Part shown: in pieces, positions 3,375 through 50,481 of the stretch
How the letters are laid out: the number at the start of each line of letters is the position of its first letter
How positions within the stretch are numbered: the first letter of the stretch is position 1
Source: Candidatus Harrisonbacteria bacterium
Lineage (GTDB): Bacteria; Patescibacteriota; Minisyncoccia; UBA6257; 02-FULL-45-10c
Length of the DNA: 64,000 nt
Assembly (NCBI GenBank): GCA_016192685.1
Contig: JACPTS010000001.1
Location: 311,647-375,646, forward strand
Direction: 5' to 3'
Program-made: the position numbers and the translations under genes
Notes under the pieces: generated by a model
Seen by the model: only the letters and a program-made list of their open reading frames with translations
Told to the model about the DNA's origin: nothing
Databases searched by the model: none

Positions 3375-4286
3375 ATGGCATCAATCGAAAAATCTTTAAA
3401 AGACTACCTGGATTATCTGGAAATTGAGAAAAATCGTTCGCCGAAAACGCGGGAGAATTACGAACGATATTTAAAAGCATTTATAAATTTTTCTAAAATT
3501 AAAAAGCCGGAAAAAATTACGGCGGAAAATATAAAAAACTTCCGGGCGCATTTGGCAAGAAAAGAAAATCTTAAGAAGCTGACACAAACTTATTACGCCA
3601 TTGCCATAAGGAACTTTTTAAAATATCTGATTAAAAACGATTACGAAGTTTTATCGCCGGACAAAATTGAATTGCCCAAAATCGCCCGACGGCAGATTGA
3701 TATTATTGAATACGCGGATTTGGAAAGGTTTTTAGCGGCGCCGGCGCAAAACACTTTGCGCGGCCTGCGGGACCGGGCGATTTTGGAAATGCTTTTTTCC
3801 ACCGGCCTCCGTATTTCCGAACTTTGTAATTTAGACCGCTATCTTAATTTAAATCGCGGAGAAATCACGGTTCGCGGTAAGGGTGAAAAATTAAGAGTGG
3901 TATTTTTGTCTGACCGCGCCAAAGCCGCGATAAAAAATTGGCTGGACAAACGCACCGATACTTTGGAACATTTGTTTATCAGCTTTTCTAAACAGACTTC
4001 GCCGCTTGCCCAGCCGAAAGTAATCGGAAAAATCACGCCGCGGGCAGTCCAGCGCTTGGTGGAATTTTATCGCCGCAAAGCCGGCATCGCCAAAAATATT
4101 ACTCCCCACCAACTTCGCCACCAATTTGCCACTGATTTATTGGTGAACGGCGCGGATTTGCGTTCGGTGCAGGAACTGCTTGGCCACAGCAATATCTCTA
4201 CTACCCAAATTTATACTCATCTTACCAATAAAGAATTGCGGGAAGTCCATAAATCTTTTCATGCCGCCCGCCGGAAGCGATATTGA
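3375..4286 (+). CDS. tyrosine site-specific recombinase, XerC/XerD family
   Basis: 303 aa; N-terminal SAM-like core-binding domain; catalytic R...K...HxLRH...Y (HQLRHQFATDL, GHSNISTTQIYTHL). Confidence 0.85.
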   Translation: MASIEKSLKDYLDYLEIEKNRSPKTRENYERYLKAFINFSKIKKPEKITAENIKNFRAHLARKENLKKLTQTYYAIAIRNFLKYLIKNDYEVLSPDKIELPKIARRQIDIIEYADLERFLAAPAQNTLRGLRDRAILEMLFSTGLRISELCNLDRYLNLNRGEITVRGKGEKLRVVFLSDRAKAAIKNWLDKRTDTLEHLFISFSKQTSPLAQPKVIGKITPRAVQRLVEFYRRKAGIAKNITPHQLRHQFATDLLVNGADLRSVQELLGHSNISTTQIYTHLTNKELREVHKSFHAARRKRY

Positions 4287-4353
4287 CTTTCGTTTATAAT
4301 TATGTTATAAATTTATAAGCTGTTCGTTAATTCTTACATAAAGGGGAGGGATA

Positions 4354-4557
4354 ATGACGATAAATCCGGGCTTCAGGGACAGAAGTCTTACGGCGGTGGA
4401 AAGGAGAGCCGCAGAGCTGATTCCGGCAGAGGAAAAGTTGGACAAGGTTCTGCCTATTCTTCAGCAGGCGAATAACCTGCGAGTGTGTGACCGGTGCGGC
4501 ATGTTCCGGAAAGTCTGCCGAAGTTCCTGCCGGAAACACCCCGTCTTACGTCCCTAA
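4354..4557 (+). CDS. small Cys-rich hypothetical protein (GC-rich, likely acquired)
   Basis: 67 aa; strong SD aaaggggaggg 7 nt upstream of ATG; CDRCGMFRKVCRSSC cysteine cluster; GC content clearly above neighbours; followed by a strong intrinsic terminator. Confidence 0.45.
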   Translation: MTINPGFRDRSLTAVERRAAELIPAEEKLDKVLPILQQANNLRVCDRCGMFRKVCRSSCRKHPVLRP

Positions 4558-4566
4558 GCTGATTCA

Positions 4567-4600
4567 AAAAAGCCCATTCTCAATTGAGAATGGGCTTTTA
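4567..4600. terminator. bidirectional intrinsic terminator
   Basis: aaaagcccattctc-aatt-gagaatgggctttt hairpin between convergent genes. Confidence 0.7.
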
Positions 4601-5272
4601 GCTTAAAAATATCCTCCAGACAGCATCAGTCGCGCCGTGAACAAGGATGGGTACTATTATATTTTCCGATTCCAGATAGGCAAGGCCGTAAATAAGGCCA
4701 GCCAGAAATGCCAGGCCAACATATTTCCAATTGGGGAAAATTCCGCCGCCGGAAAGATGGCTGTAAATGCAGGCAAAAATTGCCGTAGTAATTAAAAGCG
4801 CCAGCCAATCATTCACCCATTTTCTTAATAAGTTAAGAATCAGGCCGCGGAAAATTAATTCTTCGCTTGGCGCCACAAACAGGAAATAGCCGGCAAACGT
4901 TTCCAGGATTAATTTTGGATTTTCAATCGGATGGAATTTTAAAAATCCGATGGCAAAACCGATTGGCAGAATCAGCACTGCCAGCATAGCAAGATAATCC
5001 CTTATCAGCAGAAGTTCATATTTAGAAAAGCTAAAATTTAATTTAATGCCACGGTTTTTTAAGTAGAAAAGCGCCAGCAGAATTAAAATAGTCGCGGAGA
5101 TTTCATAAGCATAGCCAAGGCCCAAATCAATAAGATAATTTTGCCAAATCTTTAAATTAAAAATCTGCCACGAACTTAAAAAGAATAAAATATCCCAGCG
5201 ATTTAAAGAATTCGTATTTTTAGTTTTCAAAATACAGCAAAGAGATAAGGCAATGCTTAACCAAAAAAGCAT
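4598..5272 (-). CDS. CPBP-family intramembrane metalloprotease (CAAX protease-like)
   Basis: 224 aa polytopic; EELIFRG, FxxxH and HGxxD motifs of the CPBP/Abi family. Confidence 0.75.
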   Translation of the reverse strand: MLFWLSIALSLCCILKTKNTNSLNRWDILFFLSSWQIFNLKIWQNYLIDLGLGYAYEISATILILLALFYLKNRGIKLNFSFSKYELLLIRDYLAMLAVLILPIGFAIGFLKFHPIENPKLILETFAGYFLFVAPSEELIFRGLILNLLRKWVNDWLALLITTAIFACIYSHLSGGGIFPNWKYVGLAFLAGLIYGLAYLESENIIVPILVHGATDAVWRIFLS

Positions 5273-5336
5273 TTATCCTCCATTTACTTTCTTAAAAGAG
5301 ATTATCAGAAAAAATTTACTTTTTCAATTTCCGAAC

Positions 5337-5421
5337 TGGTGCTCGGGGTGGGACTCGAACCCACATGCCTTGCGGCGCATCCTCTTAAGGGATGTGCGTA
5401 TGCCATTTCGCCACCCGAGCA
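5337..5421 (-). tRNA. tRNA-Leu(TAA)
   Basis: cloverleaf with long variable arm, anticodon loop cuUAAga, CCA encoded. Confidence 0.85.
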
Positions 5422-5464
5422 TTTTTAGAATTTTAAATTGTTTAATTATAAAATTCAAATTTTG

Positions 5465-5536
5465 AGGCCACGGCCGGAATCGAACCGGCGAATAACTCTT
5501 TTGCAGAGAGTTGCCTTACCACTTGGCTACGTGGCC
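5465..5536 (-). tRNA. tRNA-Cys(GCA)
   Basis: cloverleaf, anticodon loop cuGCAaa, TTCGATT T-loop. Confidence 0.8.
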
Positions 5537-5551
5537 AACAAAATCATTTTA

Positions 5552-5896
5552 TTAGTTTTTTTGCTCTTTTTCAATCTTTATAAAAGTTTTTTCAATTTCC
5601 GCCGCTTTTTCTAATCCCAAATCTAACTTAAATCTAATTTCCGGCATCGGCTTGATATTTATTTTTTTCAAAAGCAAATGCCGCAAATTTTTCTGATTTT
5701 GAATTAAAATTTTCAATACTTCTTCGCCTTTTTCAGCCGGAATTACGGAAACCTTAACTGCCGCGTAATCCAAATCCTTTTGCGCCTCTACTCCAACCAC
5801 CGTCATCAAAGCCCCGGGAAATTCCAGTTCTTTTAAAATAAGCTTGTCTAACTCTTCTCTTATTAAACTTTCCACCCTTTGATGCCGTTGGTACAT
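5552..5896 (-). CDS. rbfA: ribosome-binding factor A
   Basis: 114 aa, RbfA KH-like fold sequence; immediately downstream of infB (conserved infB-rbfA order). Confidence 0.85.
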   Translation of the reverse strand: MYQRHQRVESLIREELDKLILKELEFPGALMTVVGVEAQKDLDYAAVKVSVIPAEKGEEVLKILIQNQKNLRHLLLKKINIKPMPEIRFKLDLGLEKAAEIEKTFIKIEKEQKN

Positions 5897-7380
5897 TACT
5901 TAGATAGAAGTTTATCTCCAACCTGGATTTTAATATCGGATTCAAAAATCAGCCCGCACTCATTGCCCTCATTCACGGCATTAACATCTTTTTTCCCTTG
6001 CTGAAGATTTAAAACTTTTCCCTTGCCGATAATTTCTTCGCCCCTTTGTATTTCCAGCCAGGATTTTATCCTAATCTGCCCGCGATTAACCCGGCCGCCG
6101 ATAGTTTGTTTGCCGCCCTTCGCGCCGAAAACGGCCAGGATTTCCAGCTCGCCGCTGTATTTGCTTTTGCCCATTTCCAAAAAGGTTTTCTCAATTCCTT
6201 CCACTAATTTATAAATAATTTCATCTGTTACTATAGTAATTTCCTGCGCCCGCGCTAAATTTTCCGCGGCTTTATTCGGTTTAGTCCGGAACCCTAAAAT
6301 CATCGCTTTGGTGGCGACGGCGTCTTTGATATCGCCATCGGTAATTTCCCCGACCGATTGGCCGATAACATCCAAAGTCTGATTTTCTTTAATTGGAATT
6401 TTTCGCAAAAGATCATGCAGGGCTTCCAATGAGCCGGCGACATCGGCTTTTAAAATTACTTTGATAGTCTGGGATTCTTTATTGCTGGTGTCTGAAGCCC
6501 CCAATTTTTTGGATGCCGTTTTAGTAACTTTTTTCAAGTCTTCTTCAGAAAGCTGGCCAGAAATAAATTCTTCGCCGATCTCCGGCAAACTTTCAAATCC
6601 TAAAATTACCGCCGGACTGGACGGCTGAAGTTCGGTTACCGGTTTTCCCAAAAAATTTTCTAAAATTTTTACCTTGCCTTTGGCGGTGGCAGTCGCAATA
6701 AGGTCTCCTTTTTTTAGTCCTCCGTCTTTTAAAATAACCGTGACTGTATTTCCTCGCTTATTGTCTAATTTTGCTTCTAAAATTACTCCGGCAGCCCGGT
6801 GTTCTGGATTATAATGAAGTTCTTCTAAGTCGGCAGTAAGCAAAATTAAATCTAGAAGCTCATTGATACCCTCGCCGGTTTTGGAAGAAACGCCTTGATG
6901 ACTGATATTGCCGCCATAACCTTCCAATAATACGCCGTTGGCGGTTAAATCATTTTTTACCCTTTCTAAATCCGCGTTTGGCTTGTCGGTTTTTGTCATT
7001 GCCACCACAAAAGGCGTTTCCGAATCTTGCAGGGCTTTCAAGGCTTCTTTGGTTTGCGGTTTTACCCCTTCGTCAGCGGCAACCACTAAAATTCCGACAT
7101 CTGCCACATGCGCGCCCCGAACCCGCATCTTGGAAAACGCCTCGTGTCCGGGAGTATCAATAAAAGTGATTTTTCGGCCGCCATGCTCAATTTCATAAGC
7201 GCCAACCGATTGAGTTATACCCCCGGCCTCTTTTAAGGCAACGTTAGTTTTTCGGACATAATCAAGCAAACTGGTTTTGCCGTGGTCAACATGCCCAACC
7301 ACTACTACCACCGGCGGGCGCTTTTCAGCCATAGGCTGATCCGCCTTCGGCGGAAAATTTTTCACATTTTCTTCATTCAT
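5896..7380 (-). CDS. infB: translation initiation factor IF-2 (short form lacking N-terminal domains)
   Basis: 494 aa; G-domain VVVVVGHVDHGKTSLLD, DTPGHEAF, NKxD; C-terminal beta-barrel domains. Confidence 0.9.
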   Translation of the reverse strand: MNEENVKNFPPKADQPMAEKRPPVVVVVGHVDHGKTSLLDYVRKTNVALKEAGGITQSVGAYEIEHGGRKITFIDTPGHEAFSKMRVRGAHVADVGILVVAADEGVKPQTKEALKALQDSETPFVVAMTKTDKPNADLERVKNDLTANGVLLEGYGGNISHQGVSSKTGEGINELLDLILLTADLEELHYNPEHRAAGVILEAKLDNKRGNTVTVILKDGGLKKGDLIATATAKGKVKILENFLGKPVTELQPSSPAVILGFESLPEIGEEFISGQLSEEDLKKVTKTASKKLGASDTSNKESQTIKVILKADVAGSLEALHDLLRKIPIKENQTLDVIGQSVGEITDGDIKDAVATKAMILGFRTKPNKAAENLARAQEITIVTDEIIYKLVEGIEKTFLEMGKSKYSGELEILAVFGAKGGKQTIGGRVNRGQIRIKSWLEIQRGEEIIGKGKVLNLQQGKKDVNAVNEGNECGLIFESDIKIQVGDKLLSK

Positions 7381-10349: not shown

Positions 10350-10525
10350 GTGAAACATTTTGTGAAACATTGGTGTAAACTTTGTGCTTAAACAGCCCAG
10401 CACCCAGTTACATGAAACAATTTTATAGAGGGTAATATAAATTAAGCAAAGTGTTTCACGCTTATTTTGTGAAACATCCGGCATTTTTTAAGCTCAAAGT
10501 AGTTAGGGTACCGTTACGTGAAACA
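10350..10525. repeat. cluster of 7 GTGAAACA octamers (both orientations), iteron-like
   Basis: copies at 10350, 10362, 10373 (GTGTAAAC), 10412 (ATGAAACA), 10453 (rc), 10469, 10518; lies between HAD terminator and the 3' end of the LAGLIDADG gene. Confidence 0.6.
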
Positions 10526-10972
10526 CCTTTGTTGAAATTTTTTGGCTTTTTCTTCAAAATAGCCCCTTTTATATAAACCAAACAGAACTTTATAGTCAGG
10601 ATGAACATTTGGATCATTGCCGATTTTTTCTAACCAGGCAATAAATTGTTTTCCTTTAAACCCGATTAATTTTTTATTAAAAAATGGTATTATTATATCT
10701 CGTAATTCGCCAAAATCTCTCACCATTATTCTTACTGTTTTTCCTCTTTTAAAACCATCTAAAAGATATGGCTTGAAAGTATAAACTTTATTTTTAACGC
10801 CTAAATATTCCCTAACTTTCTCAACTAGTTCTCTGTCGCGTTCATGCATACCAAGAATAAATGCGGGTATTTTTATTTTATTGCCATATCTATTTCTTTG
10901 AGGTATATTACAAAAAGAAAAACAACCTTCGCCATCTATTAATCCTCTAATATAGTCGGCAGTTATATCCAT
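10514..10972 (-). CDS. LAGLIDADG homing endonuclease (single-motif, freestanding)
   Basis: 152 aa; IRGLIDGEGCF motif near N-terminus; not embedded in an rRNA/tRNA gene in this window. Confidence 0.7.
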   Translation of the reverse strand: MDITADYIRGLIDGEGCFSFCNIPQRNRYGNKIKIPAFILGMHERDRELVEKVREYLGVKNKVYTFKPYLLDGFKRGKTVRIMVRDFGELRDIIIPFFNKKLIGFKGKQFIAWLEKIGNDPNVHPDYKVLFGLYKRGYFEEKAKKFQQRCFT

Positions 10973-22684: not shown

Positions 22685-22957
22685 ATGAAACGCGGAAAAG
22701 GAGCAGTGAGACGCAGAAAAAAAGATACGGCTCAGAAAGTTCGGGAGTTAAGGCATCTTTTGGGCGGCCGGAGAGCAGTTGTCCGGACGATGGAAGCGGC
22801 GTCTTCTTCCAGTTTGAAGAGGTGGGAGCAAAAAGAATGTTCCCCATTGCGCGCCCATGTGAAATTGGTAGATGAAACTTACGGCCTCGCAAGAAGAATG
22901 GGGAAAGTAATGCTTAGAAGATTGAGGGATAAAAATGGACATCCCCGCCCGAGTTAA
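22685..22957 (+). CDS. small highly basic hypothetical protein (GC-rich)
   Basis: 90 aa, Arg/Lys-rich; strong SD aaaggaggggg; overlaps the next gene by 23 nt. Confidence 0.4.
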   Translation: MKRGKGAVRRRKKDTAQKVRELRHLLGGRRAVVRTMEAASSSSLKRWEQKECSPLRAHVKLVDETYGLARRMGKVMLRRLRDKNGHPRPS

Positions 22958-23273
22958 TAAACTGCTTGTTCATTTTGGTGTAAATCAGAAAAGGCTTGCT
23001 TTGATGCTTCGGGTTTCCGAATCAACCGTAAAACGCTGGCAGAAAGGGATTGGCGTAAGTAGAACGGATAGGTTGCCGGCATTTCGAAAATTGGAAGACT
23101 TAATGAAATTAACAGAAAAAACTTTAAGCAATGAAGGCATTCCCCGTTGGTATCATCGCCCCGCGGAACTTTTCGGCCGAGAAACGCCGATTGAATTTAT
23201 GATTAAAAATGACAGCGGCATAGAAAGAGTTACCAATCTTGTTGGACAGATACGCTGGGGAATTTTACCCTGA
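22935..23273 (+). CDS. Xre-type HTH + DUF2384-like (MbcA/ParS antitoxin-like) protein
   Basis: 112 aa; N-terminal HTH (QKRLALMLRVSESTVKRWQKG); C-terminal RWYHRPAELFGRETPIEFMIKNDSGIERVTNLVGQIRWG resembles the RES-toxin-binding antitoxin domain; no RES gene visible. Confidence 0.5.
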   Translation: MDIPARVNKLLVHFGVNQKRLALMLRVSESTVKRWQKGIGVSRTDRLPAFRKLEDLMKLTEKTLSNEGIPRWYHRPAELFGRETPIEFMIKNDSGIERVTNLVGQIRWGILP

Positions 23274-23383: not shown

Positions 23384-23411
23384 TTGACGCCATAAATTAG
23401 TTTGTTATAAT
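23384..23411 (+). promoter_or_regulatory. sigma70-type promoter of the thr operon leader
   Basis: TTGACG - 16 nt - TATAAT; predicted TSS at or immediately before the leader ATG (possibly leaderless). Confidence 0.6.
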
Positions 23412-23418
23412 AAAATTA

Positions 23419-23481
23419 ATGAAAATTATTGCCACTACAACCACTGCCGCCGTTTCTAGCATTTTTGCTGGGGTATTTTAG
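23419..23481 (+). CDS. thr operon leader peptide (MKIIATTTTAAVSSIFAGVF)
   Basis: 20 codons with 4 consecutive Thr codons plus 3 Ile codons, followed 25 nt later by the attenuator terminator. Confidence 0.65.
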   Translation: MKIIATTTTAAVSSIFAGVF

Positions 23482-23506
23482 TAGTTTTAATAAATTAAGT
23501 TACTAA

Positions 23507-23535
23507 ATCGCCCCGCAACGCGGGGCGATTGTTTT
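23507..23535 (+). terminator. thr attenuator (intrinsic terminator)
   Basis: atcgccccgc-aac-gcggggcgat + tgtttt, 10 nt upstream of the thrA ATG. Confidence 0.7.
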
Positions 23536-23544
23536 ATAAAACAT

Positions 23545-25965
23545 ATGGCGAAAATAACTAAAATTTTAAAATTCGGCGGTTCTTCGGTAGGAACGCCAAA
23601 AATGATTAAAAAGGTTGGTGAGATTGTTAAAATTGCTTCCAAAAAAGATAGGGTGGCAGTGGTAGTTTCGGCATTTCAGGGGGTGACTGATCAGCTTTTA
23701 AAGTGCGCCAAGCTTGCTGCCCAAAATAATTCTAAATTAGAAATAGAATTGAAAAATTTAAAAAATCGTCATTTTCAAGCCATTCAGTTATTAGTTGAAA
23801 ATAAAAAGTTAAAAGGAGGAAGTTTAAATTATGCGGAAAATTTATTTAAAGAACTGCAATTTATTTTAGAAAAGATTGCTAAGGAGAAAATAGCTTCGCC
23901 AAAAAATTTAGATTGGGTCGCTAGTTTTGGCGAGCGGCTTTCCGCTTATATCATCGCGGCTTCTATAAAAAATGCTTATTTTGTTGATGCGAGAGAATTA
24001 GTAAAAACTAATAATAATTTTACCAAGGCCGCTGTTGATTTTGGAAAAACCAATCGTCGAATCAAAAATTTCTTTAAAAATAAAAAGGGGATTCCTATTA
24101 TAACTGGGTTTCTTGGTTCTACCGCGAAAGGCGAAACTATTACTTTGGGGCGAGGCGGGTCTGATTATACCGCCTCAATTTTTGGCGCAGCATTAGAAGT
24201 AAAAGTTATAGAAATTTGGACAGATGTGGATGGCGTGATGAGCGCCGATCCACGATTAGTCCGAAGCGCTCAAGTTTTACCAAAAATCAGTTACGAAGAA
24301 GCTGTAGAAATGGCTTATTTTGGAGCTAAAGTGATTCATCCGGCCACCATGCTTCCGGCAATTAAAAATGGCATTCCGATTTTGATTAAAAATACTTTTA
24401 ATCCAAAAGCGCTCGGAACTTTGATTCAGAAAGAATTAATACCGGCGCCGACGATTAAAGGAATAACCGCGATGGATGATATTTCGTTAGTTACGATTAG
24501 GGGTGTCAGTTTGGCAGGAATTCCCGGTAGCGCCGCCAGAGTTTTTAGCGCCACCGCCAAAGCCAAGGCAAATGTTATTTTAATTTCACAAGCCTCTTCC
24601 GAACACACTATTTGCTTTGCCGTTAAAACTAATGAGCTTCGGGCCGCGCTGGGAGGGTTAAAAAAGGAATTTCAAAAAGAAATAAAATACAGGCAAGTCG
24701 GTATAAATACTATTTTAAATCAATCCATTCTTGCCATGGTTGGCGATGGGATGCGCGGCGTCCCCGGTATCGCGGGGCGGCTTTTTAGCATGCTTGGTGA
24801 TAATGGAGTTAATGTAACTGCCATTGCCCAAGGCGGCTCCGAACGGAATATTTCTTTTGTGGTTGACGCTAAAAATAAAGTGAAGGCTTTAAATGTTGTT
24901 CATGGGGAATTTTTTGAAGGCGGCGTGAAAAATATCTTTCTAGCCGGAACCGGCAATATCGGCAGCGCCCTACTTAATCAAATTTATTCAATATTAAGGA
25001 CATCGGGTGTCCAAAGATTGAAAATACGCGGCATAATTGACGCTTTTAATATGATAATAAATGAGCGCGGGGTTAATTTAAGAAACTGGAAAAATAAATT
25101 AAAAAAAGCAGAAAAACCAAACTTTAATAAATGGCTAGAACAAACAAAATCTTTGCCATTGGGAAATAAAATTTTTGTAGATTGCACTGCCAGCGAAGCG
25201 GTGGCTAAAAAATATATTGAAATTGCGGAAGCCGGATTCCATATCGTGACGCCGAATAAGAAATTTAATGTTTTGCCGATGAAAGAATATCGGAAATTGC
25301 GTGAGGTAATGGTGAAAAATAAAAAGCAGTTTTTATACGAAACCAATGTCGGCGCCGCTTTGCCGATTATATCCACTTTGCGGGATTTGCTGAAAACCGG
25401 CGATAAAATTACCAAAATTGAAGGTATTTTTTCCGGAACTCTTAGTTTTATCTTTAATTCTTACGACGGCAGTCGGTCATTCAGTGAAGTGGTAGCGGAA
25501 GCGAAAAAACTTGGATACACAGAGCCGGATCCGCGCGAAGATTTAAACGGCAATGATGTTGGCAGAAAGCTTTTAGTGCTTGCGCGGGAAACTGGATTAG
25601 AAATGGAAATGAAAGACATAAAAATTGAGAATTTAGTTCCGCGCACACTGCTATCTCGCGGGATAGCACCGGAAGATTTTTTAAAGAGACTGGAAAAATA
25701 TGATGACTATTTTAAAAAATTATTAGAAAAAGCAAAATCTAAAAATAAAGTTCTCCGATATGTCGCCAAATTAGAAAAAGGAAAGGTGGCCGCGGGATTA
25801 CAAGAAATTTCTTTAGATAACCCGCTTGCCAATACCAGAGATGCTGACAATATTTTTGCTTTTTACACCAAGCGATATAATAAAAGGCCTTTGGTCGTTC
25901 AGGGTCCGGGAGCTGGACGGGAAGTAACTGCGGCTGGGGTGCTGGCGGATATTTTAAGAATATGA
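23545..25965 (+). CDS. thrA: bifunctional aspartokinase / homoserine dehydrogenase
   Basis: 806 aa; N-terminal amino-acid kinase domain (KFGGSSVG), two ACT domains, C-terminal NAD-binding homoserine dehydrogenase domain. Confidence 0.85.
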   Translation: MAKITKILKFGGSSVGTPKMIKKVGEIVKIASKKDRVAVVVSAFQGVTDQLLKCAKLAAQNNSKLEIELKNLKNRHFQAIQLLVENKKLKGGSLNYAENLFKELQFILEKIAKEKIASPKNLDWVASFGERLSAYIIAASIKNAYFVDARELVKTNNNFTKAAVDFGKTNRRIKNFFKNKKGIPIITGFLGSTAKGETITLGRGGSDYTASIFGAALEVKVIEIWTDVDGVMSADPRLVRSAQVLPKISYEEAVEMAYFGAKVIHPATMLPAIKNGIPILIKNTFNPKALGTLIQKELIPAPTIKGITAMDDISLVTIRGVSLAGIPGSAARVFSATAKAKANVILISQASSEHTICFAVKTNELRAALGGLKKEFQKEIKYRQVGINTILNQSILAMVGDGMRGVPGIAGRLFSMLGDNGVNVTAIAQGGSERNISFVVDAKNKVKALNVVHGEFFEGGVKNIFLAGTGNIGSALLNQIYSILRTSGVQRLKIRGIIDAFNMIINERGVNLRNWKNKLKKAEKPNFNKWLEQTKSLPLGNKIFVDCTASEAVAKKYIEIAEAGFHIVTPNKKFNVLPMKEYRKLREVMVKNKKQFLYETNVGAALPIISTLRDLLKTGDKITKIEGIFSGTLSFIFNSYDGSRSFSEVVAEAKKLGYTEPDPREDLNGNDVGRKLLVLARETGLEMEMKDIKIENLVPRTLLSRGIAPEDFLKRLEKYDDYFKKLLEKAKSKNKVLRYVAKLEKGKVAAGLQEISLDNPLANTRDADNIFAFYTKRYNKRPLVVQGPGAGREVTAAGVLADILRI

Positions 25966-27041
25966 AGAAAAGAGAGTTAAAAGTTAATAGTAAAAGGTTA
26001 AATGTTGGCATCTTGGGTGCCACTGGGATGGTTGGGCAGAGATTTGTGACGCTTTTGGAAAATCATCCGTGGTTTGAGGTGGTGAGTTTAGCGGCTTCGC
26101 CGCAATCGGCCGGGAAAACTTATGAGGAGGCAGTGTCTGGCCGTTGGGTTATGAAAAATTCAGTTCCAGAAAAATTACGCGGTTTAAAAATAAAAGTGGT
26201 TGAAGAAGATTTTGATGAAATTGTAAAAGAGGTGGACTTAGTATTTTCCGCTATTGATGCTGATAAAGAAAAAATCAAAGAAATTGAATTGCGATATGCC
26301 ACGGCTGGCGTGGCAGTAGTTTCCAATAATTCCGCGCATCGCTGGACCCAAGATGTGCCGATGATAATTCCCGAAATAAACGCGCATCATTTATCTTTAA
26401 TTGATATCCAGAAGAAAAATCGGGGTTGGGAAAAGGGGTTGCTCGTAGTGAAGCCAAATTGTTCTTTGCAGTCATATCTTCCAGTAGTATACGCGCTTAA
26501 AAAATTCGGCCCTAAAGAAGTTTTAGTTACGACTTTGCAGGCAATTTCCGGCGCCGGAAAAACTTTTGAATCGTGGCCGGAAATGCTGGATAACTGCATT
26601 CCTTTTATAAAAGGCGAGGAAGAAAAAACTGAAAAAGAACCGACAAAAATCTGGGGCGCGGGCTGTCCGGCTATTTCCGCCACCTGCATCCGTGTTCCAA
26701 TCTCGGATGGCCATATGGCAAGCGTTTCGGTAAAATTTGAAAATAAACCCTCGTTACAACAAATAAGAGATGCGATTGATAGTTTTCCAAATCCTTTGGC
26801 TAGCTTAGACTTACCGTCAGCTCCAAAAAAATTTATCAAATATTTTCTAGAAGATGATCGGCCGCAGACTAAATTAGATCGGGATTATGAAGGCGGCTTG
26901 GGCATTACTTGCGGGAGATTTCGCGAAGATGGAAATAATAGCTGGAAATTTGTTTCTCTTTCCCATAACACAATCCGTGGCGCTGCCGGCGGAGCGATTT
27001 TAATCGCCGAACTTTTGTATAAGAAAGGATATTTAAAATGA
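25962..27041 (+). CDS. asd: aspartate-semialdehyde dehydrogenase
   Basis: 359 aa; VGILGATGMVGQRF Rossmann N-terminus; active-site Cys context; overlaps the thrA stop. Confidence 0.85.
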   Translation: MKKRELKVNSKRLNVGILGATGMVGQRFVTLLENHPWFEVVSLAASPQSAGKTYEEAVSGRWVMKNSVPEKLRGLKIKVVEEDFDEIVKEVDLVFSAIDADKEKIKEIELRYATAGVAVVSNNSAHRWTQDVPMIIPEINAHHLSLIDIQKKNRGWEKGLLVVKPNCSLQSYLPVVYALKKFGPKEVLVTTLQAISGAGKTFESWPEMLDNCIPFIKGEEEKTEKEPTKIWGAGCPAISATCIRVPISDGHMASVSVKFENKPSLQQIRDAIDSFPNPLASLDLPSAPKKFIKYFLEDDRPQTKLDRDYEGGLGITCGRFREDGNNSWKFVSLSHNTIRGAAGGAILIAELLYKKGYLK

Positions 27042-27532
27042 AAGGAATTACTTTAATCGGAATGCCGGGATCGGGGAAATCTACTATCGGTAAATTACTT
27101 GCCAAAAAATTGGGGTGTAAATTTGTTGACTTGGATATCTTGATTAAAGAAAAAGAAAACCGCGGACATGAGGAAATTTTAGAAAAAGACGGCGGGGCGG
27201 AACTTTTGCGGCTGGAAAATTTGTATACTCTTGATTTGGATTTAGAAAATACCGTCTTTTCCCCCGGCGGAAGCATTGTTTATTCTTTGCCGGCAATGAG
27301 AAAACTCCAAAAAGAAACTAATATTATTTATTTAAAATTACCGCTTTTGGAAATAGAAAATCGTTTAGGCGGCAAAATTGATAGCCGGGGAATTGTTGGT
27401 TTTAAAGAAAAAGGGATTAAAAAGCTTTTTCGAGAACGGGATATTTTATATAAAAATTTTTCCCATAAAATCATTTCCTGTTTGGGATTAGATAAAGAAC
27501 AGCTTATTTATGAAATTTTACAGCACCAATAA
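27038..27532 (+). CDS. shikimate-kinase-family P-loop kinase embedded in the thr operon (candidate non-orthologous homoserine kinase)
   Basis: 164 aa; Walker A GMPGSGKST, FVDLD, SPGGSIV (SK-type GGG motif); overlaps asd stop and thrC start. Confidence 0.6.
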   Translation: MKGITLIGMPGSGKSTIGKLLAKKLGCKFVDLDILIKEKENRGHEEILEKDGGAELLRLENLYTLDLDLENTVFSPGGSIVYSLPAMRKLQKETNIIYLKLPLLEIENRLGGKIDSRGIVGFKEKGIKKLFRERDILYKNFSHKIISCLGLDKEQLIYEILQHQ

Positions 27533-28868
27533 CCCTCCTTCGCATAAAGCTACGGAAGGCAAGAAAATCCATTTCGTTGATTTTAGAACGGCACTGCTAC
27601 AAGGATTGGCTTTAGATGGCGGACTTTTTATGCCGGAAAGATTTCCAAAATTGAATAAGAAATTCTTAAAAGATATTTCTAAAAAGGAATTTTGGAAAAT
27701 CGCTCTGGAAATCAGCAAAGGTTTTATTAAAGATATTCCGGAAAGAGAATTAAAGAAGATGCTAAAAGACGCTTTTAATTTTGAAGTGCCGCTGAAAAAA
27801 ATAAACGAAAATTTATATATTTTAGAGCTTTGGCATGGGCCAACTTTGGCTTTCAAGGATTTTGGCGCGCGGTTTATGGCCCGGCTCATGAATTATTACC
27901 TGCGCCGCGAAAAGGAAAAATTAAACATTATTGTCGCTACTTCTGGGGACACCGGGAGTGCGGTGGCGCAAGGATTTTATGGATTATCTAACATAAAAGT
28001 TTTTGTTTTATATCCGAGTAAACGCATAACTGCGCTTCAAGAAAAACAAATGGCAACGCTCGGTAAAAACATTGTGTCATTGGAAGTAAAAGGAAATTTT
28101 GATGATTGCCAAAAACTTGCCAAACAAATATTGGCAGATAAAGATTTAAAAGAAAAAATAAATTTATCTTCAGCCAATTCTATAAATTTTGGAAGATTAC
28201 TTCCGCAATCCTTTTATTATTTTTACGGTTATGCCCAATTACTAAATAAGTTAAAAGTTAAAAGTGAAAAATTAAAAGTTATTTATTGTGTTCCCAGCGG
28301 GAATTTCGGCAATTTAACCGCCGGATTAATGGCGAAACAAATGGGTTTGCCCGTGAAACAATTTATCGCGGCGACGAATGCGAATGATATTGTTCCGCAA
28401 TATCTCAGAACCGGAAAATTTGTTTCACGCGTTTCGTGTAAAACAATTTCTAACGCCATGGATGTCGGCAATCCGAGCAATTTTGCGAGGATGCTGGAAA
28501 TGTTTCACGGCGATGTAAAACAAATGCGCCGCGAAATTATTGGTTTCGGTGTAAGTGACAAACAAACGCGTGAAACAATTAAAAATGTTTATCGTAAAAC
28601 CGGCTATATTTTAGATCCGCATACTGCGGTTGGAATTGCCGCGGCGCGCAAAAGCAATATTTTGCAACCGATTATCGTATTAAGCACCGCGCATCCTGCT
28701 AAATTCAGAGAAGCGGTGGAGCCGGTTATAAGCAAAAAGATTTCCTTGCCGCCGCAGCTCAAAAAAATTATTAATAAAGCCAAAAAGGCGACTTTGGTGG
28801 AAAATAATGTTGAGACGGTTAAGCGGATTATTTTAGAAAAATATGGACATATCAAAAAAACCGCCTGA
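27510..28868 (+). CDS. thrC: threonine synthase
   Basis: 452 aa; PLP-fold; FKDFGARFMA, ATSGDTGSA motifs. Confidence 0.85.
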   Translation: MKFYSTNNPPSHKATEGKKIHFVDFRTALLQGLALDGGLFMPERFPKLNKKFLKDISKKEFWKIALEISKGFIKDIPERELKKMLKDAFNFEVPLKKINENLYILELWHGPTLAFKDFGARFMARLMNYYLRREKEKLNIIVATSGDTGSAVAQGFYGLSNIKVFVLYPSKRITALQEKQMATLGKNIVSLEVKGNFDDCQKLAKQILADKDLKEKINLSSANSINFGRLLPQSFYYFYGYAQLLNKLKVKSEKLKVIYCVPSGNFGNLTAGLMAKQMGLPVKQFIAATNANDIVPQYLRTGKFVSRVSCKTISNAMDVGNPSNFARMLEMFHGDVKQMRREIIGFGVSDKQTRETIKNVYRKTGYILDPHTAVGIAAARKSNILQPIIVLSTAHPAKFREAVEPVISKKISLPPQLKKIINKAKKATLVENNVETVKRIILEKYGHIKKTA

Positions 28869-28885
28869 AAGCGGTTTAAAAATTT

Positions 28886-29197
28886 TTACTTAGAGCTCTT
28901 ACATAATGACATAATTCCTTCCTCCATCATTTTTTTGAGTTCGTCGGCATGCCACCGATTATCAGTAGTTGCCCATCCGTCAATCATTCGCGCCAGTATT
29001 GGCTCTTTTACATTTTTAATTTCGTAAGCCAATGCCTCCTTAATTTGTTTGGCAAGGTATTCCTTATTGCTCAAAATACAATTATATTGCCAAAACATTT
29101 CAACGCCAGCAGCGAATAATACTGATTTTTCTGTTTCCAGATACACATGCTTAACATAACCGCGCCAACCTTTAAAAGTAAGCCTATGCACTTTCAT
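28886..29197 (-). CDS. hypothetical protein
   Basis: 103 aa; shares a bidirectional terminator (accgc-ctgaaa-gcggt) with thrC at about 28858-28885. Confidence 0.4.
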   Translation of the reverse strand: MKVHRLTFKGWRGYVKHVYLETEKSVLFAAGVEMFWQYNCILSNKEYLAKQIKEALAYEIKNVKEPILARMIDGWATTDNRWHADELKKMMEEGIMSLCKSSK

Positions 29198-30084: not shown

Positions 30085-30118
30085 ATAAAAAACCGCACGT
30101 AAAGTGCGGTATTTATTT
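30085..30118. terminator. bidirectional intrinsic terminator
   Basis: accgcac-gtaaa-gtgcggt with A/T runs on both sides. Confidence 0.65.
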
Positions 30119-33100
30119 TACCAGTTGTAGCCGAGCCAGAAATTCCAGTCTTGCTTTCCGTATAATCCTTTACTGAATCTTGCATTCAGTCCGAGCGCAG
30201 TCGGGATATTTATGAAATATCCGGCGCTTTGCTCTAACTTCAATCCGCGATGCCCTTCAATAAACGGGGATGTTTTATCAAACCACATATCGCCAATATC
30301 ATGATATAACCCGCCGCGAATATCCAGATAAACGGTAAGCGGAGCAAACGCTTCACCAATTGGTCCGCTTATCACCGCGCCAGCCGCATTGAGAATCGGA
30401 AAACGCAATTCCGTGCTTTGCATGAGATAGCTGTTGCCCGCCTGACTGAATAACGGAATGCCTCGGAAAGTTTGATTGCCGCCCCAGATGAAAATAGTGG
30501 AATTGGGGCCGAAACTTCGGCCGCCAACCGCGCGCAATGCCAAACCGGCTCGCTCAGCGAGCGGCAAATGATATCGGGCATCCGCGTTTATTTCAATAGT
30601 TTGGAATCCTTTCTTGTGGTCAAAACCAATTTCGGTTCCGGTAAAAACCGCGGCTCCGGAATGCGGGCCGTGGCAATACCATTGATTGGCTTGGCAGTCC
30701 CAGATAGTGGTGTCTAAACTCAAGCTGGTGCCGAGCTTGGAACGCCACCATTGTACCGTGCCGGAATCCCGTTCATTTCTCACCGTTTGTTCTTTGAGGG
30801 TAACATCCCAATTGAGGAATTCATGCAGGAAGATATTTTGCGAAACGCCGACATCCATTTTATGGCGCCGGCCGTCAAAATTCCAATAGTCAAGCAGATA
30901 AGATCTGCCGGTATGCAAATTGTAATACTGGATATCCGCAAACCCCTGATTGCTGTTTTGGAGGTAAACATTGGCTGCCAATAATCGGTCATTAATTTCA
31001 TCAAGGGCCATTCCTTGCAGAGCCAGATAGCTGTTGATGCCGCCGCCGCCGAAAATAACGCCGCCAACGCCTTGAGCCTGCATTATTCTGGGCAACTTCA
31101 ATAAATTTCGGTATCGCTTTGGAATGCCGGATTTGGTATTCCATTGCCTAGCGGGAACCGCTGTTTGTTTTGAATTAACGCCGTAAGAAGAATAAACAAT
31201 CAAGTACGGAGAATTTTCGTCATTAGTTTCCATCAGGCCGCTTCCGTATACCCTTATGTTTCTATCCAGACCATAGGCATTGCCGACGGTTAAAAAGAGA
31301 GTATCATTTTTTAATTCAGCTTTTTTGACTAGCGGGATTCCGGAAGCAACCGGTGTCAGGCTGCTGGAAGCGGTGTCAAACAGAAAAATATCCAAACCAG
31401 TTTCTTTCTGCGGAACAATAAGGAATATTTTCGCTCCGTTCAGAAGCGGGTACCAGGCGATTTGTTTTTCCACCTTGACGTTCTCGGGAAAAATTTTATC
31501 CCAAGTTTTATCGGTTTCGGTGGTTACATCAAGTTCGCTGATGCTGGCATTCCATTTTTTATCCAATACCAGAATTTTGGTTTCCGATACAAAAGCCGCG
31601 TCTTGTATTTCATAGAATTCTTTACGGAATTTCTTTTTTTCTTTGCCTATTGCGTCGTAAAGAATAATTTTTGTGCGGCTCTTATCAGCCCAAATGAAAT
31701 AACGCTGGTCCGGAGACAACTTGGACAGGAAACGATTGCTTCCGGAAGATTCAGACGTGATTTCCGTATCTAGGTCATGGATTTTACCCTCCAGCCAATC
31801 GTAGATATAAGATTCTTTGTATATCACTTCTTCTTCCGGGTTTTGGGCATCGGTAATTTCGCTGTTTTTTTCAATGCTTATCATCCGCCTTTGCAATAAG
31901 GCGTTGGTTCCCGCAAGTAAAGAAATGCCGCCGTAATGTTTCATCTTTTTGAATTCATCAAGAGTGAATTGGATTGCCGTTCCAGTGGAAGAATCTGTGA
32001 GCCAGAAGCGCATTTCCGTATCGCCGCTCTTGAGAACTTCCATTGATAATTTTCTGTTTTCAACAAATAGCGCCCTGGTTTTATCTGAAGACAATGCTAC
32101 GTCAAAAATCGTCTTAGATTCCGCATCGGGAATTTTTTCACGCAGGCGCCGCACTTCAGGCCTATCCCATATTGAATCAGTGGAATGGCTGGAAGTGTTC
32201 GCAGTTACGGATGTTGAAATTGAGATTGTTTGGGGAAAAGGAGCGGTTTTTACCGACATTTCTCCTCGGGAAATAAAATTGAACGCCAATCCGCCATCGC
32301 CAAACCATTGGGGCCTAAAGATGCCGATTTTCGCGTCAGTCAATACTTCGTCAACGCGCGTGAAAAGATTGTAGCGGTGAATATTATGCGCCAATCCTTT
32401 ATCGCTGATATACAGCAAGTGGGCGCCATCAGAGGAACAAGCCGCGTAAAATTCGCTTTCCGGCGTTTGGGTTAAAAATGTAAATGTTCCGGCCGCAAGA
32501 TCGTAGAGCGCCAAGTCGTAAGAATTATTAACTTCGTTTTCAACGGAGGTAATAAGCGCGTTGCGCATTTTTGAGTAAGCCAGGCCGCGATAAGTTCGTT
32601 GGGTTGAAGTCAATTGTTTTACGGTTCCGGAACTAATATCGGCCAAAAAAAGTTCGGCGAATACGCCGTCGGCTCTGCCGACAAACGCCGCTTCTCGGTC
32701 ATTCAATATAATAGGATGCCGCATTTCGCGTATGCCATTGAATTGATGCTTAGATTTTTTGCCAAGATGAAATTTCTTTTTGTCTTTATCAAATGAAAAC
32801 TGCTGGATGACAAGCGCGTCTTGGCCGCCGACATCTATGGCGTAAGCCAGCGTTGCGCTGGAAGCAAATGACGCGCCGTGTTCCTGAAAGCCGAATTCCG
32901 GAGAAAGCTCCACTTCAAATCCTCTGACATCAACGCTTTTTAATCGGCCGCCTTCAACTAATTTTTTGGATTTTACAGCTGTGCCGTCAGTCCAGTTGAG
33001 AAACAGCGTTTCCCGGCCGTAAACTTCTTTTTTGGTGATGAAGAATTGATCGCGAGCGGCCAGAAGTGTTCCGTCGCCAATTGATATTGCTTCATCGGCA

Positions 33101-34017
33101 ATATCGGTTTTTATCCGAAGAGGCGAGTAGCGCTGTTCAATGTGCCGCCAGAGTTTTTTATCAAATTCTTCCAGGGTGTCACCGGTTGCCTTTTTAAAAG
33201 CTTTGGCGAATTTCATTTCTGCGCTGGCTTTAAGAATGGCGCTGATAACATCGCCTTTTTCTTTATAATGAGCGGCCATAAAGTGGAGAATGAATTCTCC
33301 TTCTTTATAGACCAAGCTGGTGTACCAGGGGCTCCATTTACTGATTCTCGCGAGATAGCCGTTAAGATAAGCGTCTCGCATAACCAGCTCTCCGCGCGGA
33401 TCCCATTCGTGGGCCATATGTTCAGCTGACCCCTCTATGAACCAGAGAGGCAAATCGCGGAACATAAAGTTCATCAGCGTAAGCCGAAGAAATTCGCCTT
33501 GATATCTGTGAGTCAATTCATGTCTTAATAGCCTTTGGAATCCTCGCGGTGAATCGCGGAAGGCGATAACTACGCGTTTCCATTTAATCATCTCGGTTTC
33601 GCCGCCCAATCCCTTGGGCACCAATCCCCAGATAATATTTGCCTCTTCGAAATCGCGGGAAGAATTGAAAATCACGATGCGGATTTTCTCCGCAAAATGA
33701 TTCATGTTCATTTTCTCGCTGAATTCCTTATAGGTTGCTTCGGCGTTTTCAAGATAGAGAGCCGCCAGTTGTTCGCTGTTGCCGTAAGTGTAAATTTGAA
33801 AGTGCGGAGATTCCAGCACTTTCCAATCGTATTTGCCGTAACGCGGTTTATTTTTGTGGAGATGGCCGTTGGGCAAAAAATCCACGTATTTGAAGTCAAT
33901 TTCCGGAAAAATATATCTCTCTAATGTTTCCAGTGTGTCAGCATAGCTTTGAGTTTTGAAACTAAGCGAAGCAATAAGAATTGCAGACAAAAACAGCAAT
34001 TTCTGTTTTAGCTTCAT
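30118..34017 (-). CDS. giant outer-membrane protein: signal peptide + zincin-like HExxH domain + TolB-like beta-propeller + C-terminal Omp85/BamA-like barrel
   Basis: about 1300 aa from ATG 34017 (MKLKQKLLFLSAILIASLSF); HELTHR...E motif; PD40-like repeats; C-terminus GGNQTFRGIP...ELRFPIL...GHRGLKLEQSAGYFINIP...NFWLGYNW resembles the Omp85 barrel. ORF-track start 34080 lies inside the promoter. Confidence 0.55.
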   Translation of the reverse strand: MKLKQKLLFLSAILIASLSFKTQSYADTLETLERYIFPEIDFKYVDFLPNGHLHKNKPRYGKYDWKVLESPHFQIYTYGNSEQLAALYLENAEATYKEFSEKMNMNHFAEKIRIVIFNSSRDFEEANIIWGLVPKGLGGETEMIKWKRVVIAFRDSPRGFQRLLRHELTHRYQGEFLRLTLMNFMFRDLPLWFIEGSAEHMAHEWDPRGELVMRDAYLNGYLARISKWSPWYTSLVYKEGEFILHFMAAHYKEKGDVISAILKASAEMKFAKAFKKATGDTLEEFDKKLWRHIEQRYSPLRIKTDIADEAISIGDGTLLAARDQFFITKKEVYGRETLFLNWTDGTAVKSKKLVEGGRLKSVDVRGFEVELSPEFGFQEHGASFASSATLAYAIDVGGQDALVIQQFSFDKDKKKFHLGKKSKHQFNGIREMRHPIILNDREAAFVGRADGVFAELFLADISSGTVKQLTSTQRTYRGLAYSKMRNALITSVENEVNNSYDLALYDLAAGTFTFLTQTPESEFYAACSSDGAHLLYISDKGLAHNIHRYNLFTRVDEVLTDAKIGIFRPQWFGDGGLAFNFISRGEMSVKTAPFPQTISISTSVTANTSSHSTDSIWDRPEVRRLREKIPDAESKTIFDVALSSDKTRALFVENRKLSMEVLKSGDTEMRFWLTDSSTGTAIQFTLDEFKKMKHYGGISLLAGTNALLQRRMISIEKNSEITDAQNPEEEVIYKESYIYDWLEGKIHDLDTEITSESSGSNRFLSKLSPDQRYFIWADKSRTKIILYDAIGKEKKKFRKEFYEIQDAAFVSETKILVLDKKWNASISELDVTTETDKTWDKIFPENVKVEKQIAWYPLLNGAKIFLIVPQKETGLDIFLFDTASSSLTPVASGIPLVKKAELKNDTLFLTVGNAYGLDRNIRVYGSGLMETNDENSPYLIVYSSYGVNSKQTAVPARQWNTKSGIPKRYRNLLKLPRIMQAQGVGGVIFGGGGINSYLALQGMALDEINDRLLAANVYLQNSNQGFADIQYYNLHTGRSYLLDYWNFDGRRHKMDVGVSQNIFLHEFLNWDVTLKEQTVRNERDSGTVQWWRSKLGTSLSLDTTIWDCQANQWYCHGPHSGAAVFTGTEIGFDHKKGFQTIEINADARYHLPLAERAGLALRAVGGRSFGPNSTIFIWGGNQTFRGIPLFSQAGNSYLMQSTELRFPILNAAGAVISGPIGEAFAPLTVYLDIRGGLYHDIGDMWFDKTSPFIEGHRGLKLEQSAGYFINIPTALGLNARFSKGLYGKQDWNFWLGYNW

Positions 34018-34056
34018 GATTATTTTCTTTATTTGGATATCAATGAATCTGAATAG

Positions 34057-34085
34057 ATTGTACGGAAAAATAGCGGACAAGTCAA
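34057..34085 (-). promoter_or_regulatory. sigma70-type promoter of the giant OMP gene
   Basis: minus strand TTGACT - 17 nt - TACAAT. Confidence 0.5.
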
Positions 34086-36325: not shown

Positions 36326-36417
36326 TCCTATATTTAATTTTTTTTGTTCTATAAGAACTTTAAATCAAATGGCTATTTTTTGTCAATCAATTCTTTGATT
36401 TTTTTGATATAAAGCTG

Positions 36418-36490
36418 TGGGTCAGGATGGAATCGGACCATCGATCCCCAAGGTATAAGCTTGGTGCTTTAACCGCTAAGCTACTGACCC
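36418..36490 (-). tRNA. tRNA-Ile(TAT), unusual anticodon
   Basis: anticodon loop cuUAUac with perfect stems; T-loop UCCGAUU (C55) is atypical. Confidence 0.65.
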
Positions 36491-50091: not shown

Positions 50092-50481
50092 ATGAAAAAA
50101 ATAAAGAAAAAATATTATTTTCTACTTTCTACTTTCTACTTTCTAACTACCCAAATGGCGCTCGCCCAAGGTTTAGTGCCTTGTTCCGGCCTCGATTGCA
50201 CGCTCTGCGATTTTTTGGTTCTCGCAAAAAATTTAATTGATTTAATGCTTAAATGGGGGGTGGCTTTGGCGGCGCTATTTTTTGCCTGGGGCGCTTTTGT
50301 TATAATGACAGCAGGCGGATCAGAGGAAAAAGTAACCGAAGGAAGAAAAATTATGACTACGGTTGCGGTCGGAGTTTTAATCGCTTTTACCGCCTGGCTC
50401 ATTATCGGCACCTTAATGCAAGTTTTAACTAATTCGCCGTCAAAATTACCGTGGAATCAAATTCAATGCACGCTCAAATAA
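50092..50481 (+). CDS. TrbC/VirB2-like pilin paralog 1
   Basis: 129 aa; long signal/leader, two hydrophobic helices separated by the conserved loop TAGGSEEKVTEGRK. Confidence 0.45.
   Translation: MKKIKKKYYFLLSTFYFLTTQMALAQGLVPCSGLDCTLCDFLVLAKNLIDLMLKWGVALAALFFAWGAFVIMTAGGSEEKVTEGRKIMTTVAVGVLIAFTAWLIIGTLMQVLTNSPSKLPWNQIQCTLK
50120..50147 (+). repeat. 7-nt tandem repeat (TTCTACT)x3 + TTCTAAC inside the signal-peptide coding region of pilin paralog 1
   Basis: direct reading; unit length is not a multiple of 3. Confidence 0.8.

Follow-up and report, generated by a model that had tools for sequence, protein, structure and literature searches.

Which enzyme phosphorylates homoserine in a threonine operon that encodes the other enzymes of the route from aspartate and has no recognizable thrB? 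The question is raised by a four-gene operon at positions 23545-28868 of a 64,000-nucleotide stretch of DNA (64 kb; hereafter, the window) from Candidatus Harrisonbacteria bacterium, a member of the Patescibacteria or candidate phyla radiation (CPR). The third gene of the operon encodes a 164-aa P-loop kinase of the shikimate kinase (SK) fold, and the exact protein is on record from this organism under the annotation "AAA family ATPase". On the evidence of the sequences compared here, we consider it very probable that this protein is a homoserine kinase and that the leader-thrA-asd-kinase-thrC arrangement is a self-contained aspartate-to-threonine operon. Recruitment of the SK fold as a homoserine kinase was already published in 2018 and is modelled in NCBIfam, so the idea itself is not new. 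The novelty lies in a divergent subfamily, linked to thr operons, in Patescibacteria/CPR and Elusimicrobia, which is missed by current models and mislabelled in databases.

A threonine operon with an SK-fold kinase in the thrB slot

Open reading frames (ORFs) were taken from a six-frame ORF list, and family calls were made with NCBIfam curated cutoffs together with Pfam. The first gene, thrA (23545-25965, forward strand, 806 aa), encodes a bifunctional aspartokinase/homoserine dehydrogenase that scores 946 bits on NF006959 (bifunctional aspartokinase/homoserine dehydrogenase I; cutoff 726) and contains the Pfam domains AA_kinase, two copies of ACT, NAD_binding_3 and Homoserine_dh. We take the start at 23545 to be the right one because it keeps the KFGGSS aspartokinase motif, which a shorter public gene call of 787 aa loses. 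It is followed by asd (25962-27041, forward strand, 359 aa), an aspartate-semialdehyde dehydrogenase of the archaeal/EA type (TIGR00978, 346.9 bits versus a cutoff of 301.2; also NF006416, 451 bits), by the kinase gene (27038-27532, forward strand) and by thrC (27510-28868, forward strand, 452 aa), a threonine synthase with Thr_synth_N, PALP and THR4_C domains that scores 320.9 bits on TIGR00260 (cutoff 167.1). The thrA/asd and asd/kinase junctions are both 4-nt ATGA overlaps, and the kinase and thrC genes overlap by 23 nt. An earlier note on this DNA, made from the sequence alone, had described four translationally coupled genes in this order; its coordinates proved exact and the stop/start overlaps are there.

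The same note had named homoserine kinase as the only step missing between aspartate and threonine and had found no thrB of the GHMP type in the operon, and both points hold. ThrA, Asd and ThrC all pass their curated cutoffs and homoserine kinase alone is missing, so the SK-fold kinase would supply the missing step. A Pfam scan of window ORFs of at least 150 aa detected no GHMP kinase domain (PF00288/PF08544) in the operon's four products or the 44 other window ORFs, and neither a second SKI protein nor any aro gene in the 64 kb. These 44 ORFs are housekeeping genes only, including PNPase, IF-2, Ddl, NusA, H+-PPase, trigger factor, ClpP, TyrRS, FtsH, GyrA, LeuRS, TsaD and RecG. The kinase thus shares with GHMP ThrB (PF00288) the predicted reaction and the operon slot between the homoserine-forming enzymes and thrC, but the folds of the two are unrelated.

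The SK-fold kinase is proposed to phosphorylate L-homoserine with ATP, and the product would be O-phospho-L-homoserine, the substrate of ThrC. The motifs given for the protein in the earlier note, GMPGSGKST (residues 8-16), FVDLD (29-33) and SPGGSIV (75-81), are all present, and it matches the Pfam family SKI (PF01202, 87.8 bits). Its AlphaFold (AF2) model has a pLDDT of 94, and the best Foldseek matches in the PDB are all shikimate kinases, with TM scores of 0.8-0.89 and 22-29% identity. The SK or nucleoside monophosphate (NMP) kinase fold, with its Walker A motif, DxD motif and equivalent of R136, is therefore present; it is a feature at the level of the superfamily.

Family scores, relatives and acceptor-site residues of the kinase

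Among NCBIfam models, the kinase is matched best by NF040667 (hom_kin_desulfo, "homoserine kinase"), with 119.6 bits over positions 2-161 of 163. The best shikimate kinase model, AroL NF002988, gives 69.6 bits against a cutoff of 161 and the others score lower; the protein fails every NCBIfam SK equivalog cutoff. The preference extends to its relatives. Two proteins of the same type, P0060 and P0081, score 135-137 bits on NF040667, and ten representatives of the wider clade described below score 124-184 bits, versus at most 110 on any SK model.

The homoserine kinase that NF040667 describes is apparently the one reported by Price et al. (2018, PMC5764234), DvMF_0971 of Desulfovibrio vulgaris Miyazaki F. 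This protein is annotated as a shikimate kinase, but its mutants are rescued by threonine and it complements an E. coli thrB deletion, and a separate, essential protein of the same strain, DvMF_1410, is the true shikimate kinase (Price et al. 2018, PMC5764234). A literature search returned nothing relevant on later work with DvMF_0971 or on threonine synthesis in CPR bacteria. When Desulfobacterota members were used as the seed of a profile search, the proteins obtained were all from Desulfobulbus, Scalindua and Nitrospirota, and they are named "shikimate kinase".

We searched 1.84 billion representatives clustered at 50% identity and obtained 14,846 matches with E<=1e-3, of which 1,656 had E<=1e-10 and 21 had E<=1e-30. 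The best 120 relatives (52-84% identity; hereafter, CPR-type) come almost entirely from Patescibacteria, with one metagenome-assembled genome (MAG) of Elusimicrobia, and where they are named at all the name is "shikimate kinase". They share the signature GMPGxGKST ... F[SA]PGGSI[IV]Y ... RGI[VI]G ... ER. A scan of GTDB species genomes with the family alignment, dominated by the Walker A pattern, returned one CPR locus and mostly members of a very large second group with the motif GMPGxGKST...TGGSxxY. This "wide clade" is found in Desulfobacterota, Lachnospiraceae, Oscillospiraceae, Marinobacter, Herpetosiphon, Treponema, Planctomycetota, Methanoculleus and Promethearchaeota; more than 8000 clusters at 90% identity match its profile, all "shikimate kinase" where named. 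By sequence, the CPR-type subfamily is the sister of the wide clade and occurs mainly in Patescibacteria/CPR, also in Elusimicrobia. The wide clade, judged by HMM (hidden Markov model) score, includes the validated Desulfovibrio homoserine kinase. No structure in the PDB represents the CPR-type subfamily.

Fusions with other partners occur among wide-clade kinase domains. P0356 (489 aa) carries a D-2-hydroxyacid dehydrogenase (NF006263, 440 bits), and P0282 (343 aa) and the proteins of L013, L022 and P0161 (about 265 aa) carry a GrpB domain or a C-terminal ACT domain. An ACT partner is in keeping with amino-acid metabolism, and the D-2-hydroxyacid dehydrogenase and GrpB fusions hint at functional diversity in the clade.

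To compare acceptor-site residues, we used an alignment of 120 CPR-type proteins, 198 wide-clade proteins, 19 metagenomic relatives and four solved SKs, numbered after the M. tuberculosis SK. The residues K15, D32, D34, E61, R110, R117 and R136 are kept everywhere in it. Several others that are typical of SKs are replaced in both groups. G81, a glycine in all four solved SKs, is serine in 120/120 CPR-type and 198/198 wide-clade proteins; T84 is tyrosine in 120/120 and 190/198, and is not tyrosine in the solved SKs; P118, again invariant in the four structures, is glycine in 118/120 and 198/198. L10, which is Pro, Phe or Leu in the solved SKs, is the methionine of GMPG in every CPR-type (120) and wide-clade (198) protein, and L119 and L120 become Ile and Val or Ala in the GGS-type proteins. 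The shikimate kinase hallmarks are thus lost, GGG becoming GGS followed by Tyr and RPLL becoming RGIV, and most of these changes are common to the very large sister clade. Other changes belong to the CPR-type clade itself: T78 to Pro (so that Pro replaces Thr before GGS), R58 to Leu and L45 to His. Arg58, which binds the shikimate carboxylate and is present in all four solved SKs, is found in 0/120 CPR-type proteins versus 140/198 of the wide clade.

The window kinase follows this pattern. It keeps Walker A K14/S15, D31-x-D33, Arg109, the LID Arg117 and Arg134. At the shikimate-site positions it carries L57, P76-G77-G78-S79 and R117-G118-I119-V120 in place of the SK residues (R58 to Leu, G81 to Ser, T84 to Tyr and P118-L119-L120 to Gly-Ile-Val in M. 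tuberculosis numbering). The residues therefore suggest that the SK phosphotransfer core is kept and the acceptor pocket rebuilt. We infer the substrate and the roles of the catalytic residues from this pattern: D31-x-D33 would hold the catalytic Asp, the phosphotransfer machinery would work as in shikimate kinases, and the pocket would have been rebuilt for L-homoserine instead of shikimate. With AroK/AroL (PF01202; M. tuberculosis 1L4U/2IYQ, E. coli 1KAG), the protein shares the NMP-kinase-like fold, Walker A, DxD, the LID Arg and the R136 equivalent. It differs in overall sequence (24-30% identity), in the replacement of R58, G81 and P118-L119-L120, and in its context, which is threonine synthesis and not aromatic amino acid synthesis.

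Compared with the DvMF_0971/NF040667 type, the fold and the proposed reaction are the same, the GMPG, GGS, Tyr and RG[IV] features are carried by the window kinase and the wide clade alike, and both types are annotated as shikimate kinases in public databases. The window kinase differs in belonging to a separate clade, in having Pro and not Thr before GGS and in having no equivalent of Arg58. HMM scores, profile comparison, shared residues and the tree agree in placing it closer to the NF040667 family than to shikimate kinases.

The differences just listed leave room for a reading in which homoserine kinase activity arose separately in the CPR-type clade, from an SK ancestor, so that the protein would phosphorylate homoserine without being an orthologue of the Desulfovibrio enzyme. 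In a neighbour-joining (NJ) tree the CPR-type clade is indeed a split of its own in 159 of 200 bootstraps, the NF040667 score lies under the cutoff, and the T78, R58 and L45 changes are specific to this clade. The same tree, however, separates the canonical SKs from all GGS-type proteins in 161/200 bootstraps, and the derived GMPG, GGS, Tyr84 and RG[IV] features are common to the CPR-type and wide clades and are not found in canonical SKs. The CPR-type profile is also more similar to that of the wide clade (hhalign score 301, 38% identity) than to that of canonical SKs (196, 29%), and fusions to ThrC, described in the next section, occur with kinase domains of both the T-GGS type (P0384) and the P-GGS type (the P0325 fragment). 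We therefore regard a second, independent recruitment as unlikely, although it survives better than the other alternatives, and prefer the reading of a homoserine kinase that shares its origin with the Desulfovibrio enzyme.

Synteny, a fusion with ThrC and a thrL-like leader

Contextual evidence for a homoserine kinase comes from the company of thrC. In 18 of the 20 related loci with enough downstream sequence, drawn from metagenomes and assemblies, thrC follows the kinase gene, and it does so across differing operon layouts. The order thrA-asd-kinase-thrC recurs in three loci (L089, L092 and L109); elsewhere we found thrA-kinase-thrC (L102), thrA-asd-kinase-GT87-thrC (L110), kinase-thrC alone (Elusimicrobia, L107) and, in Uhrbacteria (L108), hom-AK-kinase-thrC with monofunctional enzymes and a short ThrC.

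Among the best 150 representatives, one protein (P0384) is a fusion of the two enzymes in a single 613-aa ORF (L111, 2717-4558). The first 410 residues form a threonine synthase (TIGR00260, 233.6 bits), and the C-terminal domain (residues 455-612, with the motifs STGGSIIYS and ERGIV) has NF040667 as its best match, with 150.9 bits. Such a fusion is expected for consecutive enzymes. The contig that carries it is very AT-rich and 14 kb long; genes for eRF1, a BCS1-like AAA protein and ankyrin repeats lie on it too, and it may therefore be eukaryotic, archaeal or from a giant virus and not bacterial. A second candidate, P0325 (the C-terminus of ThrC with a P-GGS kinase), was rejected as a solid fusion, because its contig is 1.1 kb long and the gene call begins internally.

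Upstream of thrA, the window holds the elements of an attenuator. A 20-codon leader ORF, MKIIATTTTAAVSSIFAGVF, at 23419-23481 (forward strand) contains two Ile and four consecutive Thr codons. It is followed by a predicted antiterminator (23466-23517, forward strand), in which GCUGGGG... pairs with the 5' arm of the terminator under constrained folding, and by an intrinsic-terminator-like hairpin (23506-23537, forward strand) of 11 bp, eight of them G-C, followed by GUUUUAU and ending shortly before the thrA start codon (23545). The folding energy of the leader region has a z of -3.2 relative to shuffles. When a ribosome stalled on the Thr codons was simulated by masking to 23458, the antiterminator formed with -18.5 kcal/mol before the 3' arm of the terminator was made; with the ribosome at the stop codon, constrained folding gave the terminator alone. 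Thus, an ORF with regulatory codons and mutually exclusive antiterminator and terminator helices lie directly upstream of the operon, with a predicted regulatory function: stalling on the Thr codons would let the antiterminator form and avert the terminator. The best promoter-like site in the 270 nt upstream of thrA, a consensus match at 11 of 12 positions (TTGACG-16 nt-(TG)TATAAT with an extended -10 TG; 23384-23411, forward strand), has a -10 element that ends 7 nt before the leader ATG, and the leader mRNA may therefore be leaderless.

Comparable leaders precede thrA in two related loci, namely the Thr-run ORF MKVMLKIISTIATTITTTTTTLSPSLRS with a hairpin and U-run in L109 (1186-1335) and MRFSLTTTTATTTTQSVVGEF with a hairpin and U5 in L110 (1366-1505). 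Like thrL (RF00506), the window leader is a short ORF rich in Thr and Ile codons, and thrA is directly preceded by alternative hairpins with an intrinsic terminator; unlike thrL, the leader is shorter, is found in Patescibacteria and has no significant match in sequence or structure. Membership in the Rfam family Thr_leader was rejected (15.7 bits versus a gathering threshold of 55, E = 1.4), and a scan of the window and seven related loci gave no riboswitch, T-box or Thr_leader at the gathering threshold. With a score so far below gathering, the leader is better described as a functional analogue of thrL than as a member of its family. We found no report of leader-peptide attenuators in Patescibacteria in the literature. 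On the folding models, the operon, kinase included, appears to be controlled by ribosome-mediated attenuation, and the predicted attenuator would independently mark the whole operon, again with the kinase, as threonine-regulated. The earlier note's proposal of a non-orthologous homoserine kinase is therefore supported from several sides: the HMM ranking, the loss of shikimate-site residues, the linkage to thrC, the fusion and the attenuator.

Could the kinase belong to threonine metabolism and still act on another acceptor, such as L-threonine, L-serine or another hydroxy acid, or be a bifunctional or regulatory protein, while a different enzyme makes O-phosphohomoserine? The loss of R58 in the CPR-type proteins, when 140 of the 198 wide-clade members keep it, means that their pocket differs from that of the validated enzyme's clade; one variant (L093) sits beside purine and methylthioadenosine (MTA) salvage genes, and the unrelated fusion partners mentioned above (D-2-hydroxyacid dehydrogenase, GrpB, ACT) suggest some functional diversity in the superfamily. 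ThrC nevertheless needs O-phosphohomoserine, and neither the operon nor the window has another kinase candidate that would provide it; the gene lies between asd and thrC in translational coupling, and a fusion with ThrC is what one expects of a consecutive enzyme. We consider another acceptor quite improbable, more so than an independent recruitment.

That the protein is instead a genuine shikimate kinase (AroK/AroL), placed in the thr operon by chance and with homoserine kinase encoded elsewhere, we regard as hardly tenable: the SKI match, the nearest solved structures, the public annotation of many relatives and the conserved equivalents of D34, R117 and R136 would all fit it, but every SK equivalog cutoff is failed (best 69.6 versus 161), the Arg58, GGG loop and RPLL LID motif that are invariant in solved SKs are missing, neither the window nor the flanks of four related 10-kb loci contain an aro gene, and chance cannot account for 18 of 20 kept adjacencies or for the ThrC fusion.

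Several observations weigh against the assignment of the operon's SK-fold protein as a homoserine kinase under attenuator control. Gene absence was scored in the 64-kb window, and a GHMP thrB, ThrB2, ThrH (another proposed ThrB substitute, of different fold and chemistry) or a shikimate pathway may be encoded elsewhere in the genome. The NF040667 score of 119.6 bits is below the cutoff of 197, so by the conservative rule of NCBI the kinase is not a member of that family; the cutoff is reached by 0 of 18 family members scanned. The link to DvMF_0971 was made through the NF040667 HMM. Neither thr nor aro neighbours were found around 76 wide-clade loci, which sets these apart from the window kinase inside its thr operon; neighbour clustering revealed no conserved context at these loci, the sole recurrent partner being a MurA-like gene at 10 of them. 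There are also exceptions to the synteny. In L093 the kinase gene has apt on one side and an MTA-phosphorylase-like gene on the other, and its product has no RGI motif, and the Paceibacter locus L004 has no thrC downstream, at a place where the assembly has a gap (N-run). Finally, of six related loci whose sequence extends upstream of thrA, the three more distant ones have no Thr-run leader, and the window leader has no obvious Shine-Dalgarno sequence and a short U-tract after its terminator.

Two of these loci deserve a description of their own. The L093 variant (5471-7332; 52% identity) is a CPR-type kinase away from thr genes in which RGI is replaced by RKEAVVG, and it may have diverged in function. 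In L004, a reverse transcriptase ORF (YADD motif) and an ORF for a small helical protein lie between asd and the kinase gene (3400-6004).

Whether every protein of the GMPGxGKST...(T/P)GGSxxY...RG[IV] clade is a homoserine kinase systematically mis-annotated as a shikimate kinase is a broader question. The clade also spans Patescibacteria, Elusimicrobia, Clostridia, methanogens and Asgard archaea, and from the sequences we hold the general statement to be tentative, with the balance tilting slightly away from it. If it is true, a sizeable part of the "missing ThrB" gaps would be explained, and ThrB is "missing" in about 20% of prototrophs (GapMind, PMC7311316). The phosphoglycerate-mutase-like "ThrB2" (TIGR02535; BT2402), also proposed as a substitute for ThrB, failed to complement E. 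coli thrB (GapMind, PMC7311316). It resembles the SK-fold kinase in being a non-orthologous replacement often clustered with thr genes (PMC7311316), but its fold and chemistry are different, and the SK-type enzyme DvMF_0971 did complement thrB.

For the SK-like GGS clade, the synteny, the fusion and the attenuator form an independent context that strengthens the assignment as homoserine kinases. Operon context, fusion with ThrC and a residue signature, (T/P)GGSxxY and RG[IV] where shikimate kinases have GGG and RPLL, can serve in practice to tell SK-fold homoserine kinases from true shikimate kinases, and this rule reaches well past the narrow, Desulfovibrio-only NCBIfam model. The labels "shikimate kinase" and "AAA family ATPase" lead annotation pipelines to predict threonine auxotrophy and a phantom shikimate step in CPR bacteria and Elusimicrobia.

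CPR organisms are generally regarded as poor in amino-acid biosynthesis. Here, a small-genome CPR organism keeps what would be a complete aspartate-to-threonine route, apparently under a thrL-like attenuator. Were the whole GGS-type clade to consist of homoserine kinases, de novo threonine synthesis controlled by classical leader-peptide attenuation would follow for at least some CPR bacteria.

Other features of the window

A hairpin at 28858-28877, between thrC and the convergent ORF 28886-29197, is terminator-like on both strands by consensus match and is possibly a bidirectional terminator. Farther downstream of the thr operon, the window encodes a 1320-aa protein (30118-34080, reverse strand) with a weak match to collagenase M9, and a counterpart holds the same relative position in the Paceibacter locus L004 (7546-11412, reverse strand). 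Just upstream of the thr leader are two small overlapping ORFs (22685-23273); the second has an Xre/MbcA/ParS-like antitoxin C-terminal domain, and the two may therefore form a toxin-antitoxin-like pair.

A free-standing LAGLIDADG homing-endonuclease ORF lies at 10514-10972 (reverse strand) in a stretch of low GC content (0.34), with no rRNA gene detected near it by Rfam. At 50451-50915 (forward strand) there is an ORF for a type IV secretion pilin (T4SS_pilin/TrbC). ARAGORN identified a tRNA-Ile with the anticodon UAU at 36417-36490, which is uncommon in bacteria and implies decoding of AUA without a lysidine-modified CAU tRNA. A second gene of amino-acid metabolism in this small genome, at 53019-54053 (forward strand), encodes a short glutamine-synthetase-like protein of 344 aa.

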